Of a DNA stretch of 64,000 nt, positions 22,806-32,477 are shown one piece after another. The stretch is from an uncultured Candidatus Binatia bacterium. Lineage in GTDB: Bacteria; Desulfobacterota; Binatia; Binatales; Binataceae. The notes under the pieces are model-generated. The model worked only from the letters and a program-made list of their open reading frames with translations, was not told the DNA's origin and searched no databases. Each line of letters opens with the position of its first letter. Within the stretch, counting starts at the first letter, position 1. The position numbers and the translations under genes are program-made. The DNA lies in assembly GCA_964429575.1 (NCBI GenBank), contig CAYSCX010000008.1, forward strand, positions 16,217 to 80,216, given 5' to 3'.

Positions 22806-22960
22806 CAGGGTGTTGAGAAAGGCCGTGAGTTCGAAGATTCCATCGACTGTGCGCTCAACACCCTGCCTGAAAGCTGGCTTCCTTCCTAATCTTCTCCCCC
22901 TCTGGGGGAGACGCGAGAGAGGGAGCAGGCTGTTGAAGATGCCTTCTTCAACAGCCTGCT
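22804..22960. repeat. family-1 palindromic intergenic repeat (two hairpins plus a CTCCCCC/GGGGGAG core), inverted orientation relative to the 34207 copy
   Basis: Hairpin GCAGGGTGTTGAG...CTCAACACCCTGC (22805-22866), palindrome CTCCCCC-TCT-GGGGGAG, and a 16-bp-stem hairpin AGCAGGCTGTTGAAGA/TCTTCAACAGCCTGCT (22924-22960). Same architecture as 34207-34390. Confidence 0.85.
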
Positions 22961-22965
22961 AAGTC

Positions 22966-23523: not shown

Positions 23524-23660
23524 TCAGCGCGGCCGCGCGTTGAGCGCGCCGTCCAGCCGTATCGTCTCACCGTTTAGGATCGCGTTTTCGACAATGTGAC
23601 GCGCCAGCGCCGCGTATTCGCGCGGCTGGCCGCCAAACTGCCGGTCGAAAAACGCCGTTA
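23524..23660 (-). pseudogene. C-terminal remnant resembling an SDR (3-hydroxyacyl-CoA dehydrogenase type), cut by the insertion
   Basis: The minus-strand frame reads ...[43 protein letters not shown]. This matches the conserved SDR C-terminal pattern (RLG-P-EYA...NG..IRLDGA). There is no upstream body. Confidence 0.6.
23647..23656. repeat. left copy of the 10-bp direct repeat GAAAAACGCC flanking the insertion
   Basis: Identical 10-mer at 26399-26408. Composition changes at this point. Confidence 0.6.
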
Positions 23661-24032
23661 AGACGCGCGTCGGTGTGTAGCCTCGGTGAAGTGTTCTTGA
23701 AGAGCGAGGGTACTGCTAGACGGTCGAGATTTTGGTCTAGACTGTTCTTTTTTCCAACGTCCAGTATCAAGCAGTTCAGGCGGCTGCTCGCGGCTCTTTC
23801 GCGAAACGGCGTTCTTTGTTATCTGCTTGCCTTGGCGCTTTTGAGCGACCCGCAACACGGGGAACTCGACACCTTCGCACAAGCAGGGCTTTCCTTCGGC
23901 GCCACCCGAAAGGATGTCCCACCAGTTCCTTCGTTGCTTGCTGCCGCGCGCGGCCATCTTGACCATAGCCTCGTCGATGAGGTTGACCACATCTTTATAG
24001 CCGTTATCGCTGAGCCATTTGCGGCAGGTCAT
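23658..24032 (-). CDS. hypothetical protein (124 aa), family unknown
   Basis: The ATG overlaps the stop of the upstream 274-aa gene (ATGA at 24029-24032). The N-terminal 75 aa look globular ([18 protein letters not shown]...[11 protein letters not shown]...FPVL). The C-terminal third is basic and low-complexity. The stop codon sits 1 nt inside the islet edge. Confidence 0.55.
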
Positions 24033-24853
24033 ACTTCCTCCGGTTCGTCATCTTCAGCACCATCGTCATCTCCCAGGGATTGCCAGATATGAACTCGGTT
24101 CTGTCGTCCGGTCTCTATCATCCAGATTTGGTCCTCTCCGTTCACAAGCTGAATGATACTTCGAACGAAGAGGATCCGGAACAGAAAACGCACGTTTTGA
24201 AGCTCGTCTTCAGTTTTGTGCGGGAAGATGAACCGCGCGACGGCGGTCGTTTCGTCAATGAGATACTTCTCGCCCCGTTTCTGAATAGTCGCTACCTCAT
24301 CCTGAGTTCTGAGCTTTCCGGAACGAAATCGTCCGTCGACATGGTAAATGGAGTAGCCGACGAAGTGGTCCTCGATGAATCGTAAGATGTTCTCGAAATA
24401 GTTTTCATCAGAATCGTCGGAGAACTTGAGGTTTGTCTTTAGTTCAGGTGTGCCAATAGTCTTGAGTCGGGCAAGCAGACTGTCCTTGTAGAATAGTGCG
24501 TCGAGAGTCGTCCTCAAATGCGTCTCGTTGGTAAGAGGCATTAGGAAATCGTAAATCATTACGTCCGAGCTGCTCGGATCGTAGCTGGTGACGACGCGTC
24601 GGACTTGAGTGACGTGCCGCTTGAATTTTGGCCAACTTACGAATTTTCGGAATGCTTCGGATACTCGATACTGATCCGGCCCGATCTTCTCAATTAGGTC
24701 CTTGTAGTGCTTGCTAAGGTACGTGTTCAGCGTGCCGGGTTTTTCCCATCCGGTAGCCTCGCGGAATTCTTCCTTTGTGAATGGCTCCTGGGACTGTAGA
24801 TGCTCAAGAAGGAAGCGATGCGCCGCGCGTTGAGTGGTGTCGTCTGCCATCAC
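24029..24853 (-). CDS. hypothetical protein (274 aa), possible N-terminal wHTH, acidic C-terminal tail; family unknown
   Basis: Long clean ORF in lower-GC DNA, with GTG 24853 / ATG 24850 as possible starts. The tail [14 protein letters not shown] is strongly acidic. No catalytic motif recognised by eye. Confidence 0.65.
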   Translation of the reverse strand: MMADDTTQRAAHRFLLEHLQSQEPFTKEEFREATGWEKPGTLNTYLSKHYKDLIEKIGPDQYRVSEAFRKFVSWPKFKRHVTQVRRVVTSYDPSSSDVMIYDFLMPLTNETHLRTTLDALFYKDSLLARLKTIGTPELKTNLKFSDDSDENYFENILRFIEDHFVGYSIYHVDGRFRSGKLRTQDEVATIQKRGEKYLIDETTAVARFIFPHKTEDELQNVRFLFRILFVRSIIQLVNGEDQIWMIETGRQNRVHIWQSLGDDDGAEDDEPEEV

Positions 24854-25024
24854 ATTCGCTCATGGCGCCATGCGCCAGATCCGAATCGGCCGAAAACAAG
24901 TTGTCAAGCCTCGTAATTTTAGCCCTTCGGCGGTTTCCAATAAATAAGGGAATTTAGGCGGGCTTTGACGTAATATGGGCAACCAGTTCTCGGATCTCAG
25001 GGGCTGGCCGGGACTTCTGTCGAA

Positions 25025-25441
25025 TTAGAGCTTGCCCTGATTTGCTCTTGCGACGAAACCTTCGAGGGTCAGGATGTCAACCTTATCTGCGTCCACGAGA
25101 TACGATTTCAGACCGCCACCAACATAAAAGTTTCGTAACTTCCAACCCTCGCCGCCGAGTACAAGATATGCCTCGTCATAGGTGCCCTGGCGGACGGCGT
25201 CGGCTAGGCAGATAACCTCGAACGGAACTTTCTGCTCAGCTGTGCCGGACACTTGTTGCCATTTGAGCGACACTAAATATTTGAGTCCGTTCTTTTCGGC
25301 GATTACGTCGACGAAATGCCTGCCGCCGCCGAACCGATCACCGATATGTTGTTGTGTGAGATATGCGTAACCGCCGCGCTTGAGCGCGGGCAGAATCATC
25401 GCTTCGAGAACTCCGCCCGTTGTGGTGCTTCGCGGAGACAT
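25025..25441 (-). CDS. minimal PD-(D/E)xK-like nuclease (Hjc/VRR-NUC-like core), candidate restriction endonuclease
   Basis: 138 aa. E13 ... D45 (FVDVIA) ... S58-L-K60 (YLVSLKWQQVSGTAEQK) follows the E..D..(E/S)xK spacing of small PD-(D/E)xK nucleases. Its ATG lies 3 nt after the Dam stop. Confidence 0.5.
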   Translation of the reverse strand: MSPRSTTTGGVLEAMILPALKRGGYAYLTQQHIGDRFGGGRHFVDVIAEKNGLKYLVSLKWQQVSGTAEQKVPFEVICLADAVRQGTYDEAYLVLGGEGWKLRNFYVGGGLKSYLVDADKVDILTLEGFVARANQGKL

Positions 25442-25444
25442 TAC

Positions 25445-26257
25445 TTAGAAATTCTTGATCGCGAGAACCTCTCGAGCCGGTGTGCGATCGCCAGTGCAAC
25501 TGATCATACGAGGCGCCTCGAGAAAATTAAGTGTGAATTTTAGCTTCCGGTAGAGGGCCACAATTCGCTCAGTGGCTTGGTTCGAGAGTACGACTGGACC
25601 TGGGTGCTTCGCGAGCCACTCGGCTGCGCGTACCTGCTCCTCCCAACTGAATCCCTGCTTTGAATATTGCGTGAACTGGACGTCGTATGGTGGATCGGCG
25701 TAGACAAAATCGTCTGGTTCGAGAGGGACCACGGCGAAATCCATGTTTGCGAAGTCGCAGTTCGCGAAGAGTCTCCGATACGGCGTAAAGTCTCGCGTAT
25801 ACGTGATTTGCGCATATCGGCCGAATGGGACGTTGAAACCCCCGCTGCGATTGAATCTGCAGAGACCGTTGTAACCGGTTCGGTTGAGGTAGTAGAACAG
25901 CGCCGCGGCCTCCTCGCCATCGGCTTCGCCCTCCGCGAGAAGTTGGTTGAAGCGATCGCGTTGCTCGTAGTACGCGCGCTCCTTGTTAATCATCGCGACC
26001 GAGGTTTTCAGGCCGCGCTTGAGCGAGCGATAGAAATTTATCAGATGCGGATTGATATCGTTGAGTAATGCCTCGTCTGGAGAGAGTCCGGCGGTAACTG
26101 CAAGTCCCCCGCAAAACGGCTCTACGAGGCGACGATGTTTGTGATCAGCCCACAAAGCGCGCAAGTGTGGGACCTGCCACCGCTTCCCGCCGGCCCACTT
26201 CAACGGCGGCTTGAAATCGCCGTTCGCGTCCACCTTCCTCACCTTGCTCATCCCCAA
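25445..26257 (-). CDS. Dam-class (D12, alpha) DNA N6-adenine methyltransferase
   Basis: KWAGGK, EPFCGGLAV (FxGxG), NDINPHLI, YNGLCRFNRSGGFNVPFG and catalytic DPPY (VYADPPYD). The start is TTG 26257 or ATG 26251. Confidence 0.92.
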   Translation of the reverse strand: MGMSKVRKVDANGDFKPPLKWAGGKRWQVPHLRALWADHKHRRLVEPFCGGLAVTAGLSPDEALLNDINPHLINFYRSLKRGLKTSVAMINKERAYYEQRDRFNQLLAEGEADGEEAAALFYYLNRTGYNGLCRFNRSGGFNVPFGRYAQITYTRDFTPYRRLFANCDFANMDFAVVPLEPDDFVYADPPYDVQFTQYSKQGFSWEEQVRAAEWLAKHPGPVVLSNQATERIVALYRKLKFTLNFLEAPRMISCTGDRTPAREVLAIKNF

Positions 26258-26398
26258 TCATGGAGTTATCACAGGCTTTTCGATTGCGGAAATGGCTTTC
26301 ATGGTAGTTTCAACAGACGCTTAAGCTCCTCCCTGTGGCGGAGCTGGGATTCACAAATCGATTCCCCTCTCACTGGAGAGGCGCATCAATTCGTCCGT

Positions 26399-26408
26399 GA
26401 AAAACGCC
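26399..26408. repeat. right copy of the 10-bp direct repeat GAAAAACGCC
   Basis: Identical to 23647-23656. On the minus strand both copies encode A-F-F in the same codon phase. Confidence 0.6.
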
Positions 26409-26541
26409 CCGCGAGACTTGCGGATGCGCCCCAAGGCCACTTGGTACTTGGTTTCCGACAGCGCGGCGAAAATGAGTTCCGAGGGAGAGCGCTTCGCCAC
26501 GATCGTCGCGGCTACACCCGTCTAGGTCCTACCTCCGCCAC

Positions 26542-27705
26542 TCATCCCACCTCCGCCACCCTCGGCAGCACCTTGGTGTGGAACAACTCGATGGTCTTCA
26601 TCAGCCGATCGTGCGGAATCAGCGAATTGTACATCCACGCGAAAATCCACCTGACCGGCAGCCGCTTCGCCATCGTCTCGAGCTGGCGCGTCACAGTATC
26701 GACGGTTCCCACAAACGCAAGCCCGTTCGTCCACAAGTCCGCGGGCTCGCCGGTCTTCGGATCCTCGAGCCCCTTTGAAAATCCAAATGGCTCGAACCAC
26801 TCATGGCCGCAGAAGTAGCCGCCCTCGCGCCACAGATGCATCGCCTCCTCGTCGGTATCCGCGATGATCACGTCGCGCAGCACGCCCATTCCTTCGCCGA
26901 GCGGCTTGCCCGAGACTTCCGCGTACAGTTCGCAAAGCTGGTGCTCGAACTGCGGATAGAGCGGCGGCAGCACCGCAGTGACGCCCTCCTGAGCGCACCA
27001 GCGGATGCTCCGCTCGGATGACGCGAACGGCTGAAAGAGGGGCGGATGCGGCTTCTGGAGCGGCTTTGGCACCACTCCGACTGCCTTCACGATGCCGTCT
27101 TCCACGCCTCCGCCCCACTTGACGGTCGCATCCAGTCCCCACGGCGTAGCGCCGGGTGGAACCTTCCAGTACTTGCCCTGGTACGAGAGCAGGTCCTTGG
27201 TCCACGCGAGCTTGATTATCCGGAAGCACTCTTCGAATGCTTCGCGGTTCGCCGCATCGATGGCATCGTGCTGATGCGGCAATGCACCGCTCACGCCATG
27301 GGTCTGCTGCGCCATGATGTCCACCCAGCGGCGCTGATAGCCGCGCGCAAAGCCGGCATTGGCGCGCCCGCCGGTCATGTGATCGAGCATCGCGATGTCT
27401 TCGGCGACGCGAATCGGATTTGACGCGGGCAGCACGATTCCGAGCTGACCGACCCGCAGTTGTTTGGTCTGCATGCCGACGAACAGGTCGAGCATCACCG
27501 GGTTGTTCGACATCTCGAAGCCTTCGATATGGAAATGGTGCTCGGTGAAGCTGATCGAGTCGTAGCCGATGTCATCGGCAAGCCGCGCCTGCGCGGATAG
27601 TTCGCGCAGCATCTGCTGATAGAGCGAGTTGTTGAGACCGACACGGCCCTTTTCGATGTCGGGCTTGGATCCAACCGTTGGCAGGTAGAAAAGCGAAACT
27701 TTCAT
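26542..27705 (-). CDS. LLM-class (luciferase-like) flavin-dependent oxidoreductase
   Basis: ATG at 27705 after AGAGG. N-terminal MKVSLFYLP...SISFTEHHF and TIM-barrel LLM features. The upstream 25 codons of the track ORF are discarded. Confidence 0.8.
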   Translation of the reverse strand: MKVSLFYLPTVGSKPDIEKGRVGLNNSLYQQMLRELSAQARLADDIGYDSISFTEHHFHIEGFEMSNNPVMLDLFVGMQTKQLRVGQLGIVLPASNPIRVAEDIAMLDHMTGGRANAGFARGYQRRWVDIMAQQTHGVSGALPHQHDAIDAANREAFEECFRIIKLAWTKDLLSYQGKYWKVPPGATPWGLDATVKWGGGVEDGIVKAVGVVPKPLQKPHPPLFQPFASSERSIRWCAQEGVTAVLPPLYPQFEHQLCELYAEVSGKPLGEGMGVLRDVIIADTDEEAMHLWREGGYFCGHEWFEPFGFSKGLEDPKTGEPADLWTNGLAFVGTVDTVTRQLETMAKRLPVRWIFAWMYNSLIPHDRLMKTIELFHTKVLPRVAEVG

Positions 27706-27937
27706 CGTTACCTCTTGCTGCCCGCGATGTGAACCTTGTACGCGCGCCCCGACTTTAGGACGCCATTGGATAGGCCACAAGCGCCACGCACGATTCGCGC
27801 ACTTTCCACGCCTCCGGCCGCGATTCCGTCGTCGTCGATGTCGCCGCGAGCCCGGCCGTACTGATTGATTTCATCCGCGCAAAGTTGCGATTGTAAGCGG
27901 TGCCCGTGCGGCATCCGCCCATGCAAGGAGAACCACC

Positions 27938-28828
27938 ATGTCACAGCAGCAACTCGACACGATCATCCAGATGCTCAGGGCGCGACCCATTGCGCAGGCG
28001 CCGACCATCGAGCAGACCCGCGCAGGATTCGAGCAGATGGCGGGTCTTTTCCCGGTTGACGCCGAGGTGAAGCGCGAGCCCATTCAAGCTGGTGGCGTAC
28101 CTTCCGAATGGGTCTCCGCCCCCGATGCCGACGCGGGCCGCGCGGTGCTTTACCTGCACGGCGGCGGCTATGTGATCGGATCGATCAATACTCATCGCGC
28201 GCTCGCGGCACGCCTGTCGCGAGCGGCCAAGGCGCGCGTACTGGTCATCGACTATCGGCTCGCGCCGGAGCATCCGCATCCCGCCGCCGTCGATGATGCT
28301 GTGGCGGCGTACCGCTGGATGCTTTCGACCGGGCTCAAGCCGACGCGCATCGCGGTCGCCGGTGACTCGGCGGGCGGCGGGTTAACGGTCGCGACGCTGG
28401 TCGCAATCCGCGACGCGAAGCTGGCGACTCCGGGAGCCGGCGCGTGCCTGTCGCCGTGGGTGGACCTCGAAGGCATCGGGGAGTCGATGACCACCAAGGC
28501 GGCGGTCGATCCGATGGTGCAGAAGGAGGGGCTGATCGGGATGGCGAAGGCCTACCTGGGCGGGAAGGATCCGCGCACGCCGCTCGCCGCGCCGCTTTAC
28601 GCGGACTTGAGCGGACTGCCGCCGCTGCTAATCCAAGTCGGCACGGCGGAGACGCTGCTCGATGATTCAACGCGCATAGCGGAGCGCGCGCGCAAAGCAG
28701 GCGTAAAGGTGACGCTTGAGCCGTGGGAGAATATGATTCACGTCTTCCAGCTCTTCGCGCCGATGCTCGATGAGGGTCAGCAGGCGATCGAAAAGATTGG
28801 CGCGTTCGTTCGCGAGCACGCGGCGTAG
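27938..28828 (+). CDS. alpha/beta hydrolase, HSL-type esterase/lipase
   Basis: Oxyanion HGGGY motif, nucleophile elbow GDSAGG, and C-terminal HVF histidine. Confidence 0.9.
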   Translation: MSQQQLDTIIQMLRARPIAQAPTIEQTRAGFEQMAGLFPVDAEVKREPIQAGGVPSEWVSAPDADAGRAVLYLHGGGYVIGSINTHRALAARLSRAAKARVLVIDYRLAPEHPHPAAVDDAVAAYRWMLSTGLKPTRIAVAGDSAGGGLTVATLVAIRDAKLATPGAGACLSPWVDLEGIGESMTTKAAVDPMVQKEGLIGMAKAYLGGKDPRTPLAAPLYADLSGLPPLLIQVGTAETLLDDSTRIAERARKAGVKVTLEPWENMIHVFQLFAPMLDEGQQAIEKIGAFVREHAA

Positions 28829-30630: not shown

Positions 30631-30707
30631 TGGCGCGCCCTGAGGGATTTGAACCCCCGACCCGCAGATCCGTAGTCTGCTGCTCTAATCCGCTGAGCTA
30701 AGGGCGC
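30631..30707 (-). tRNA. tRNA-Arg (anticodon ACG), CCA encoded
   Basis: Hand-folded cloverleaf. Acceptor GCGCCCT/AGGGCGC, D stem GCTC/GAGC, anticodon stem GCAGA/TCTGC with loop CTACGGA, T arm GGGGG-TTCAAAT-CCCTC, discriminator G plus CCA. Confidence 0.92.
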
Positions 30708-30783
30708 ACCGGGAAACTACAAAATTTTCACATCGCGACCCGTGTCGCAAGACGCCGCGGCGCGCGCTCGAGCGACGGCGCTT

Positions 30784-30850
30784 AGCAGGCGGTTGAAAAA
30801 GTCATTTTCAACCGCCTGCTGCCTCTCTCGCGTCCCTCCCAGAGGAGAGC
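30784..30850. repeat. family-1 repeat, partial copy (first hairpin plus CCTCTCTCGC plus a degenerate core palindrome)
   Basis: AGCAGGCGGTTGAAAAAGTCATTTTCAACCGCCTGCT followed by GCCTCTCTCGCGTCCCTCCCAGAGGAGAG. Co-linear with 34207-34274. Confidence 0.8.
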
Positions 30851-30860
30851 TTTGCGTAAG

Positions 30861-30902
30861 CGACAACCTAACCCCTGACCCCTTCCCTAAAGGGAAGGGG
30901 AA
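30861..30902. repeat. family-2 palindromic repeat (CCTAACCCCTGNCCCCTTCCC-TAAA-GGGAAGGGGAA)
   Basis: Nearly identical about 40-mer at 48122-48160. Stem CCCCTTCCC/GGGAAGGGG with loop TAAA. A related longer hairpin lies at 30948-30993. Confidence 0.8.
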
Positions 30903-31055
30903 CCCGGCGCGGGGAGAGAGGGCGCGCGTGTGGCCCAACCCGCTGGACCCTTCCCCGTTCGACTTCGCTCAGGGCAGGCCTAAAGGGAAGGGGAACCAGA
31001 AAGGGAGCGCACCGCCGGGACCGCGCCGATGGGTTCCGCGTTGCTCATCACCCTG

Positions 31056-32477
31056 TTAGGACGCGCGCGCGGTCGCGCCGGACTCGGCGGCGGGAATCCA
31101 GACCGTGACCGTGGTGCCTTCGCGCAGTCGGCTTTCGATCTGAAGAGCGCCATGGTGCAGCTGTACGATGTGCTTGACGATGGCAAGGCCGAGGCCGGTG
31201 CCGCCGAGCTCACGCGAACGGGCGCGGTCGACGCGATAGAAGCGTTCGGTCAGGCGCGGGATATCCGACGCCGGGATACCCTCGCCAGTATCGGCTACCG
31301 CGACCGCGACGCCCATTCGCCCCCCGGCAACGTTTTGCCGCGCGTGCGCTGAGAGTGTGACGCGGCCCTCGCGGGGCGTGTATTTGATCGCATTGTCGAG
31401 CAGGTTGAGCATCACTTGCTGCATTCGGTCACGGTCGCCGAACAGCTTCGGAAGCGAATCACCGCAATCGATCACGATCGCGATCCCACCGCGTTGCGCC
31501 TGCTCGCGCATCAGCTCGGCGGCCTCATCCAGCACTGTGCGCGGATCGAGGGGTTCAAGCCGAAGCGGCGTAAGGCCGCGCTCGAGGTCGGAGAGCGTTA
31601 TGAGGTCATCGATCAGGCGGCCGAGCCGGCGCGATTGGCGTTCGATGATTCCAAGGAAGCGGTGGCGCGTTGCGGGATCATCAACGCCCTGCACCAACGT
31701 CTCGGCATAGCCGCAAAGCGCACTGAGCGGGGTGCGAAGCTCGTGGGTAAGGTTCTGGATGAAGTCCGCGCGCACCGTCTCATAGACCTTGAGCCGGGTG
31801 ATGTCGTGGAACACCAGCACCCACGCGGTCACCTCGCCGCGCGCGCTCAACACCGGCGCGGCGTTGACGTCGAGATCGTAATGGTCGGGATTCTGAATCA
31901 CGATTTGCGCGCGAATCACGGCGCCATCGCGTGAGGCCATCGAACGCGCCACGAACTCCTGCAGCCGCGGGTCGCGGCAGAATTCGACGAAGTCGCGTCC
32001 TCGCACGGCTGCATCGTCGGCGAGTCCAAACATCTTGCGGGCCGCGCCGTTCACCAGCACCACGGCGCCATCGCGGCGTGTCACGACCACCGCCTCGGTC
32101 ATGCTGCGCAGAATCGCCTCGAATTCATCGCGCTGTTCAGCGAGGGTATCGATCTCGCCGGCGACCGAGTCAGCCGCGTCCAGCAATTTGCGCTCTGCAC
32201 GGCCGAGCGCGTCATCATCTTCGCGCACCAGGTGTGGAGGCGGATTGCGCTGCTCAAGCGCGCTCGCGACCGCTTCGAGCCGCTCCGCGTGCGCGCGGAG
32301 TTCGCGCGCGGCGGCCGCGAGCCAGATGGCCGACGCGGCGGCACCCAGCGCGAGGGCGGTCACGACCCAAATGAACGAAACCAGGTGGAAAGACGCGAGC
32401 ACGACCAGCAGCACGGCGGCCGGCAGAAGACCGGCCGCAACCGCCGCGGCCATGCGAACGATCGGCGATTCAGTCAA
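31056..32477 (-). CDS. phoR: sensor histidine kinase, PhoR-like
   Basis: N-terminal TM segments, a PAS-like region, H-box FIQNLTHELRTPL, and HATPase N/G boxes (LLDNAIKYTP, DTGEGIP, GGTGLGLAIV). Follows the phoB-like gene with an 8-nt overlap. Confidence 0.8.
   Translation of the reverse strand: MTESPIVRMAAAVAAGLLPAAVLLVVLASFHLVSFIWVVTALALGAAASAIWLAAAARELRAHAERLEAVASALEQRNPPPHLVREDDDALGRAERKLLDAADSVAGEIDTLAEQRDEFEAILRSMTEAVVVTRRDGAVVLVNGAARKMFGLADDAAVRGRDFVEFCRDPRLQEFVARSMASRDGAVIRAQIVIQNPDHYDLDVNAAPVLSARGEVTAWVLVFHDITRLKVYETVRADFIQNLTHELRTPLSALCGYAETLVQGVDDPATRHRFLGIIERQSRRLGRLIDDLITLSDLERGLTPLRLEPLDPRTVLDEAAELMREQAQRGGIAIVIDCGDSLPKLFGDRDRMQQVMLNLLDNAIKYTPREGRVTLSAHARQNVAGGRMGVAVAVADTGEGIPASDIPRLTERFYRVDRARSRELGGTGLGLAIVKHIVQLHHGALQIESRLREGTTVTVWIPAAESGATARAS

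Follow-up and report, generated by a model that had tools for sequence, protein, structure and literature searches.

A fragment of a methylase-nuclease cassette in place of most of a dehydrogenase gene in an uncultured Binatia bacterium

When a compact group of low-GC genes is bracketed by a short direct repeat and carries no recombinase, has it inserted itself as a self-contained unit, or is the repeat misleading? This question is raised by a locus on contig CAYSCX010000008.1 of an uncultured Candidatus Binatia bacterium from soil, of which a stretch of 64,000 nt (hereafter the window) was analyzed and in which the genes of interest lie on the minus strand. The 10-mer GAAAAACGCC occurs there on both sides of an islet encoding a Dam-family methyltransferase (MTase) and a small nuclease, and an earlier inspection of the letters alone (the sequence-only reading) had interpreted the islet as a mobile restriction-modification (R-M) unit that entered a 74-codon open reading frame (ORF) by simple insertion with a 10-bp target-site duplication. 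Our analysis leads to a different answer, one that we consider very probable: rather than being self-contained, the islet is a 2.83-kb piece of a cassette that circulates horizontally, and it was captured without a recombinase, replacing most of a short-chain dehydrogenase/reductase (SDR) gene. The flanking luciferase-like monooxygenase (LLM) assigned the window to Candidatus Binataceae (Binatota) and yielded 80 related loci; in what follows, comparison loci carry L-numbers, comparison proteins carry P-numbers, and p185 denotes the neighbour gene convergent to LLM and SDR. Exact matches to the flanking-gene proteins with an ATG start were found only in islet-bearing contigs.

An islet-free allele and the 10-bp repeat

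Via the 90%-identity cluster of the LLM protein we found a 100-kb contig from the Joint Genome Institute, L105, in which p185 follows LLM after 272 bp with no islet. Because its flanks match the window at 97–99% identity for more than 19 kb, L105 represents the same species. Both blastn and global alignment showed that the homology between the two contigs (97%) ends at window position 26487 and restarts at 23536, giving breakpoints at 26486/87 and 23536/37, 78 bp away from the right repeat copy and 111 bp away from the left one. The strain difference is an allelic substitution, 2,950 bp in the window versus 204 bp in L105, that is still polymorphic in the species, and the islet, which had been thought to be bounded by the repeat, is delimited by positions 23537–26486. 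The 204-bp filler of L105 is unrelated to the window and contains no SDR signal, no GAAAAACGCC and nothing like the junction predicted for an empty site. The sequence-only reading had named an unoccupied site without the predicted junction as grounds for giving up its model, and the conspecific site is of this kind, having neither the junction nor the 10-mer.

Much of what had been seen in the letters was reproduced. The 10-mer occurs exactly twice in the window, at 23647–23656 and 26399–26408 (0.21 copies being expected), and the repeat does not extend beyond 10 bp. GC content between the copies is 53.5%, as against 62.8–63.8% in the 10-kb flanks. Both copies read A-F-F in the same phase of the minus strand, and in-silico removal of 23657–26408 gives one open 74-codon frame ending in NARPR*. 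If a self-contained R-M unit had entered a host ORF of 74 codons and duplicated GAAAAACGCC as its target, this would account for a 10-mer present only twice, for the shared codon phase and for the frame that opens upon excision, and the 266 bp that excision leaves come close to the 272-bp gap between LLM and p185 in L105. We nevertheless regard such an insertion as extremely improbable, given that the homology of other cassette copies continues on both sides of the right repeat copy, which is conserved in them. The match with L100/L101, 76.7% over 2,789 bp, extends from window position 26500 to 23745 and thus reaches about 92 bp past the right copy, and the homology to L083 (26486–26390) spans it; the counterpart of the right 10-mer is GAGCGTTTTTCACGGA in L100/L101 and GCGCGTTCTTCACGGA in L083, while the minus-strand motif GGCGTTTTTCACGGA is kept in L100/L101 and has one change in L083. 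Being conserved and internal to a truncated cassette gene, the right copy cannot be a duplicated host target. Moreover, the 74-codon ORF is a chimera of this cassette-gene remnant and an SDR tail, and L105 has an unrelated filler without the 10-mer or the predicted junction. A shared 10-mer had been given a chance level of 5–10%; computed from pairs of 300-nt windows 2752 bp apart in this window, the figure was 23%, and 7% of 150-nt window pairs at the same distance had an exact direct 10-mer in common.

Taken together, these results indicate that the two GAAAAACGCC copies are unrelated, one being conserved inside the truncated cassette gene and the other lying in a 25-nt left junction zone, and that repeat identity, phase agreement and the open fused frame are all three coincidental, as is the closeness of 272 bp to the predicted 266 bp. 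The notion of a self-contained mobile unit falls with the target-site duplication, the islet being a fragment of a larger cassette. Campbell-type integration of a circular molecule at the 10-mer was likewise rejected, as cassette sequence, not host DNA, lies upstream of the right copy. The segment is foreign, as had been noted, and does carry a methylase and a nuclease of restriction-endonuclease fold with no recombinase of its own. The reported absence of a recombinase and of terminal inverted repeats was confirmed, while the count of four genes was not: five cassette genes are present, including the 49-codon ORF at 26351–26500, a truncated cassette gene that had been taken for host sequence. 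Searches of Pfam, NCBIfam, PADLOC and PHROG detected no integrase or transposase domain in the islet, whose ends have no terminal inverted repeat and none of the features of insertion sequences (IS), transposons or miniature inverted-repeat elements. Neither junction has a tRNA or Rfam RNA (the closest tRNA occupies 30631–30707), and features of an integrase-mediated island were not found, recombinases being located only near other cassette copies (L100, L104). The original observation of the sequence was accurate and its significance overestimated; nothing at the locus speaks for an R-M element that inserts itself without a recombinase, which corrects a tempting misreading. A minus-strand terminator-like hairpin (TCCGCAAGTCTCGCGGG) lies at 26408–26424, and the T-run of the right 10-mer copy comes after it; the regional total of such signals was not above chance, and promoter and terminator scans came out at or below chance.

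What the islet displaced was revealed by the related loci. The ancestral order in L046, L059 and L053 is LLM and a full-length 255-aa SDR facing p185, an anti-sigma gene and an extracytoplasmic function (ECF) sigma gene (LLM -> SDR -> <- p185 <- anti-sigma <- ECF sigma), and the same neighbours (LLM, p185, anti-sigma, ECF sigma) are present in the window. A full-length SDR is found in 28 further loci, SDR-p185 synteny in at least 20 relatives, and the SDR is of the HSD10 type (HSD10-like 3-hydroxyacyl-CoA dehydrogenase family). Only residues 40–74 of the reconstructed 74-codon ORF match related loci, always at the end of the gene between LLM and p185, and hmmsearch with a 31-sequence SDR profile matched window positions ~23526–23632 (E 5e-16). 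In blastn, homology to relatives ends at the LLM stop codon and restarts at 23632, with the remnant 74–89% identical to relatives and having a GC content of 67.9%. Since the profile match covers only SDR positions 220–255, about 219 codons are missing (the first ~216–219), and the left fragment is, from its alignment, the tail of a pseudogene. A diverged SDR continuation in the right fragment, which would have favoured simple insertion, was rejected, the same profile giving no match in any frame of 26380–26560. The coordinates of the segment and its parts are collected in Table 1.

Table 1. Features of the islet and its junctions in window coordinates
Feature	Position	Strand	Remarks
Segment differing from the L105 allele	23537..26486		2950 bp here versus 204 bp of unrelated filler; GC 54.1%
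Cassette fragment proper	23658..26486	-	GC 53.7%; truncated 80-aa gene, MTase, nuclease, 274-aa and 124-aa genes
Remnant of the 80-aa gene (g80), 49 codons, 5'-truncated	26351..26500	-	67-69% identical to intact 80-85-aa proteins P0241-P0243
Right copy of GAAAAACGCC	26399..26408	+	Codons A-F-F of g80, inside the cassette
Dam-family (D12 class) N6-adenine MTase, 268 aa	25445..26251	-	PF02086 4.1e-40; TIGR00571 5.9e-56
PD-(D/E)XK (PDDEXK_11) nuclease, 138 aa	25025..25441	-	PF20472 1.2e-11; starts 3 nt after the MTase stop
274-aa core cassette protein (u274)	24029..24853	-	N-terminal winged helix and C-terminal alpha/beta (ferredoxin-like) domain in the AlphaFold2 model, pLDDT 83
124-aa cassette protein	23658..24032	-	4-nt overlap with the 274-aa gene; C-terminal ...RRRAS-stop conserved
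SDR remnant, last 36 codons and stop	23524..23632	-	Profile of 31 Binataceae SDRs, positions 220-255
Left junction zone, 25 nt	23633..23657		Between the last cassette stop (23658-60) and the first SDR-homologous codon (23632)
Host spacer 3' of the LLM stop	26487..26541		Common to the islet-free allele; GC 67.3%

Several observations concern the dispensability and surroundings of the SDR gene. It appears frameshifted or truncated in several relatives, with the match split at residue 217 in L017:13349-14112, limited to residues 1–250 in L023:13409-14158 and split at ~155 in L008:13425-14188, which suggests that Binataceae can do without the gene and repeatedly lose it by decay. Between LLM and SDR lie 120 bp to 7.1 kb in different Binataceae (L004–L061), with variable contents: a Kef-type cation/proton antiporter, a YceI-like protein, extra LLM genes, hydrolases and a Baeyer-Villiger-type monooxygenase. 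This position is structurally plastic and not a defence island, and the interval as a defence-island hotspot was rejected on account of the antiporter, YceI, LLM and hydrolase genes that relatives hold there.

The cassette and its copies in other genomes

In its full form the cassette consists of an 80-aa gene, the Dam-family MTase, the small PD-(D/E)XK nuclease, the 274-aa protein and a ~124-aa protein, in this order. The window fragment is 76–81% identical at the nucleotide level to the copies in L088, L089, L092, L100, L101 and L104 over 26500/26410..23745, and its GC content contrasts with the 67–68% of the adjoining SDR tail and host spacer. At the upstream end of the fragment the 80-aa gene is cut: the intact proteins P0241–P0243 share the pattern MLEVCRD.HSRGFY...AALSETKYQ...GRIRKSRGAFFTDE...RGIDL, of which the window copy has lost the first ~30 codons. 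This g80 remnant is also recognizable in L100/L101 and L083, and in L104 the gene is intact and directly upstream of the MTase. At the downstream end, a homologue of the 124-aa protein comes after the 274-aa gene whenever a copy is long enough, the ...RRRAS-stop terminus is kept in seven independent copies, and every copy diverges right after the stop, which in the window is 23658–23660.

The cassette recurs widely. Searching for copies with different flanks, as the sequence-only reading had advised, uncovered it in many unrelated contexts, as a recurrent co-directional arrangement of MTase, (nuclease), 274-aa gene and ~105-124-aa gene; homologues (686 for the 274-aa protein, 4,156 for the nuclease) are 60–84% identical across Binataceae, Pyrinomonadaceae, Dehalococcoidia and Gammaproteobacteria. 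MTase, 274-aa gene and small gene always occur together, the nuclease being missing in L085, L086 and L097, and the genes are packed tightly, with a 3-nt spacing in the window and 4-nt overlaps elsewhere. In L104:1-16243, part of a 938-kb contig, a tyrosine recombinase, a BglII-type R-M system, HicB, an ankyrin protein, ParA, ParB and HTH_36 precede an intact five-gene cassette that is followed by 204-aa and 886-aa unknowns and a second tyrosine recombinase; with a GC content of 50–59%, this is probably an integrated element of plasmid or integrative and conjugative element (ICE) type. The cassette of L102 lies in a conjugative element with TrbL/VirB4, SIR2 and SMODS genes, that of L100 adjoins a serine recombinase and DUF2971/HATPase genes, that of L098 is situated among IS elements, that of L087 in a defence island with EcoRII, Dcm and TIR genes, and that of L083 beside HU, while L103 (APH/aconitase) and L085 (ABC transporter/response regulator) carry it bare between housekeeping genes. 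No cassette was found in a scan of viral contigs, and neither the 274-aa protein nor the nuclease had a match among PLSDB plasmids. A metagenome scan for the 274-aa gene returned only 10 mostly short loci, and phage records only ~34%-identical cyanophage homologues of the nuclease.

These contexts raise the possibility that a complete integrative element like that of L104 was integrated between LLM and p185 and then decayed by deletions that removed most of the SDR gene. The same five genes do reside in an integrase-bracketed ParAB element (L104) and in a conjugative element (L102), the window copy is cut inside g80 as a deletion end would be, and the locus is deletion-prone, L105 having perhaps lost its SDR independently. 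However, no remnant of an integrase, att site, tRNA or par gene is left at the locus, the cassette lies only 55 nt from the LLM stop and ~25 nt from the SDR tail, and the four retained genes are exactly the intact operon, so that two fortunate deletion endpoints would be needed. We therefore consider decay of a resident element unlikely and prefer capture of a fragment.

Divergence between copies differs strongly along the cassette (23658–26251) in comparisons with L088, L089, L092, L098, L102 and L104. Identity to L089 is 89% for the MTase, 95% for the nuclease and 82% for u274, and identity to L098 is 64%, 69% and 80%, respectively; relative to L104, the synonymous divergence (dS) is 0.6–0.85 for the MTase-nuclease block and saturated for the 274+124 block. 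Because the two blocks differ in divergence between copies in this way, the results point to a mosaic cassette.

Probable capture of the fragment

At the right junction the window equals L105 up to ...GATCGTGGCGAAGCGCTC, and the last 8–14 nt also align with cassette copies, e.g. GGTGGTCGCGAAGCGC in L100. A three-way alignment of the window, L105 and L100/L104/L083 showed that the last ~14 nt of the host spacer (GTGGCGAAGCGCTC) overlap the cassette homology as a candidate microhomology, with GTGG..CGAAGCGC common to host and cassette. Judged from this alignment, the overlap could be what microhomology-assisted illegitimate recombination would leave, or L105 could keep a few cassette nucleotides. 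The left junction zone, which includes the left 10-mer copy, can be read over its mere 25 nt as diverged SDR (FFDRQFGG versus PFPQRLG of relatives) and has, over the same 25 nt, a faint likeness to the sequence 3' of the stop in L100. Derivation of the left 10-mer from the SDR ('IPFPQRLG' codons) or from the cassette 3' flank was considered, and neither assignment held in a zone of only 25 nt.

The capture may be pictured as follows. Plasmid- or ICE-like DNA carrying the cassette would have been the donor, and a piece that begins midway through the 80-aa gene and ends shortly after the last stop codon would have entered the chromosome by recombinase-independent (illegitimate, probably microhomology-assisted) recombination. 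The incoming piece would have replaced the spacer after LLM and the first ~216–219 SDR codons, leaving a 36-codon SDR tail, and an MTase and nuclease acting as a Type II-like R-M (addiction/defence) pair might have favoured retention of the bare fragment.

Some findings weigh against this picture. L105 is itself a derived, SDR-less allele that keeps only the last ~3 SDR codons, and a deletion in an islet-bearing ancestor could in principle have produced it. The case for microhomology concerns 8–14 nt, and the cassette copies used in this comparison are only ~77% identical to that of the window. No intact SDR was present among the same-species contigs obtained.

The order of events is the point at stake if the islet-free allele is secondary, the cassette being ancestral to both strains and L105 having lost it with the SDR tail by a deletion that acquired filler. 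The sequence shared up to GTGGCGAAGCGCTC, with its last 8–14 nt alignable to the cassette, is in keeping with L105 retaining cassette nucleotides, and the 55-nt spacer is unusually divergent (87%) between the alleles. On the other hand, the end of the L105 filler (AGGAAGGTTGGA) is similar to the conserved ribosome-binding region that precedes intact SDR genes of relatives (GCGAGGTTGAT followed by ATG), as expected of an ancestral LLM-SDR spacer. Because of this resemblance, the alignment weakly suggests that the old LLM-SDR spacer survives as the filler and that each of the two strains lost the SDR gene independently. A secondary origin of the L105 allele is, in our judgment, a minor possibility, and it would change only the polarity of events and not the nature of the islet.

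A further history that we weighed supposes that a long target in the 3' part of the SDR gene was duplicated when the cassette entered there and that the upstream SDR copy was later deleted, leaving the present tail as the downstream duplicate. Insertions of this mode do operate in these genomes. In L009:13797-17348, from another Binataceae lineage, a ~3-kb insert with a transposase fragment and a Zn-dependent alcohol dehydrogenase is framed by direct repeats of 274 bp (97%) made up of the last 90 SDR codons, an independent event at the SDR 3' end; in L105:8063-9782 (window 27924–28011), a 1,544-bp insertion lies between 88-bp direct repeats (85/88 identical). Yet the window holds no second SDR fragment or duplicated segment, and an extra deletion ending 55 nt after the LLM stop would be required, which makes this course of events very unlikely. 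The cargo of the L105 insertion is an SLFN_AlbA_2-domain (Schlafen/AlbA_2) gene of 331 aa and a 75-aa ORF, and its 88-bp target occurs once in the window, at the 5' end of an alpha/beta-hydrolase gene 1.4 kb from the islet. The 88-bp and 274-bp cases are genuine long-target-duplication insertions with other cargo, separate from the islet event and located in the same neighbourhood of related genomes.

The horizontal capture seen at the locus is of an ordinary kind, though well resolved: part of a methylase-nuclease cassette was gained and a housekeeping gene was lost. For an uncultured phylum (Binatota), it shows cleanly and at the population level how a piece of plasmid/ICE cargo becomes chromosomal by replacing such a gene, with both alleles still present in nature.

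Gene functions and known systems

The ratios of nonsynonymous to synonymous substitution rates (dN/dS) against independent copies were 0.04–0.10, and the cassette genes are therefore functional. The MTase (dN/dS 0.09–0.10 versus L104 and L100) matched PF02086 and TIGR00571 over its full length, with DPPY and FCGG motifs in the translation, and in PADLOC it matched oMTase (the orphan-MTase model, best, 3.8e-72) and MTase_II (7.4e-58). The nuclease (dN/dS 0.04–0.05; invariant E13, D45 and S58-x-K60) was modeled by AlphaFold2 (AF2) as a minimal restriction-endonuclease-like fold (pLDDT 84, pTM 0.82), with AF1548, R2 restriction-like endonuclease (RLE) domains, Can2/Card1 and HindIII as its nearest Foldseek neighbours; no restriction endonuclease (REase) family was matched, and a literature search on PDDEXK_11 / PF20472 found no papers. 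The 274-aa, 124-aa and 80-aa proteins have no family in Pfam, NCBIfam, PADLOC or PHROG. For u274 (dN/dS 0.04) only fold-level matches were obtained, to small uncharacterised phage proteins (E 2e-5) and to the phage S-adenosylmethionine (SAM) lyase structures 6zm9/6znb (E 5e-3 to 9e-3, TM-score 0.49–0.54), an enzyme described in PMC7877911, of the family of Svi3-3/T3 SAMase; its profile gave no SAM lyase match among PDB sequences, and hence no support at the sequence level. A u274-family profile also matched YoeB-type toxin chains (7v6w, 7v5y) marginally over residues 39–100 (E 1.4e-4), through the motif 'R....RVV.......EVLI' where the AF2 model is least confident; this match and the 4-nt overlap of the u274 gene with the small gene after it hint at a toxin-antitoxin-like pair.

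Type II R-M systems include ones with Dam-family (D12 class) methylases, such as the GATC systems of DpnII/MboI type. Similar to these, the islet has a D12 N6-adenine MTase followed by a coupled restriction-endonuclease-fold protein, both under purifying selection. Unlike them, its nuclease has only 138 aa, belongs to PDDEXK_11 with no characterised REase family and is dispensable in some copies, and two further conserved genes always accompany the islet-type MTase. From the translational coupling and strong purifying selection of the MTase-nuclease pair we infer a Type II-like R-M pair, with the 274-aa and 124-aa genes as a second, tightly linked module; the fold of the nuclease and its conserved E..D..SxK residues would be compatible with a cognate endonuclease. 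This assignment is tempered by several facts: the nuclease is optional in the cassette; the best PADLOC model for the MTase is that of an orphan MTase, with no REase family matched; and the constant partner of the MTase is the 274-aa protein, which has no nuclease fold. The PADLOC oMTase match and the position of the cassette near parAB/rep-like genes and conjugative elements recall the orphan or anti-restriction MTases of plasmids, ICEs and phages, from which the islet MTase differs in being chromosomal, stripped of its mobile element and accompanied by a nuclease. A tentative alternative, to which we give limited credence, is that the constant trio of MTase, 274-aa winged-helix/SAM-lyase-like protein and ~124-aa protein, with the nuclease as an option, represents an undescribed methylation-linked defence or element-maintenance system, in which the 274-aa non-nuclease core protein, going by its modeled fold, might sense or consume SAM. 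Homologues occur in soil and peat bacteria across phyla (~700 for u274 to 4,000 for the nuclease, 60–84% identity), and no PADLOC or Pfam system model matched the trio with the nuclease. If such a system exists, the window copy would be a naturally minimal, chromosomally captured version of it. The widespread uncharacterised methylase-linked four- or five-gene cassette may merit experimental study.

Polymorphisms linked to R-M genes have been sorted into classes that include a 'substitution' class and a recombinase-free insertion class, the latter having a duplication of more than 30 bp, an empty site with one copy and an insert of less than 20 kb with R and M homologues (Furuta, Abe & Kobayashi 2010, PMC2853133). 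The islet fits the 'substitution' class and not that of insertion with long target duplication (PMC2853133). As in the former, a compact low-GC methylase-nuclease unit without a recombinase stands where a related genome has different DNA, the short flanking repeats are not alignable to the alternative allele, and there is no clean empty site; it departs from that class in being a fragment cut inside a gene, in having destroyed a housekeeping SDR and in having an R gene assigned only by inference. With the insertion class, the model behind the sequence-only reading, it shares a recombinase-free insert of less than 20 kb and a methylase beside a nuclease. By contrast, its repeat is 10 bp long (not >30) with one copy internal, and the empty allele has none. 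Compared item by item with that class, the size is 2.8 kb, the M gene is clear and the R candidate is a PD-(D/E)XK fold without REase family; the repeats do not lie at insert/target junctions, as cassette homology continues ~92 bp past the right copy.

Finally, some small-scale differences between the two strains were recorded. The 55-nt host spacer at 26487–26541 is ~87% identical between the alleles, as against 97–99% in the flanking genes, and this could be a recombination/repair footprint or could reflect relaxed constraint. A 15-18-nt tandem duplication (GTGGCGGAGGTGGGATGA / GTGGCGGAGGTAGGA) crosses the LLM stop at window 26527–26559 in both alleles. A motif resembling repetitive extragenic palindromes (REP-like; TTCGACTTCGCTCAGGGCAGGC) is present in the 204-bp filler (L105:11220-11423) and at window 30958–30979, within a 317-nt stretch (30766–31082) that is replaced by 42 nt in L105, and an 81-nt element at window 22881–22961 recurs at L105:2064-2144 (92.6%). 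The REP-like motif and the 81-nt element look like short dispersed repeats tied to strain-level indels.

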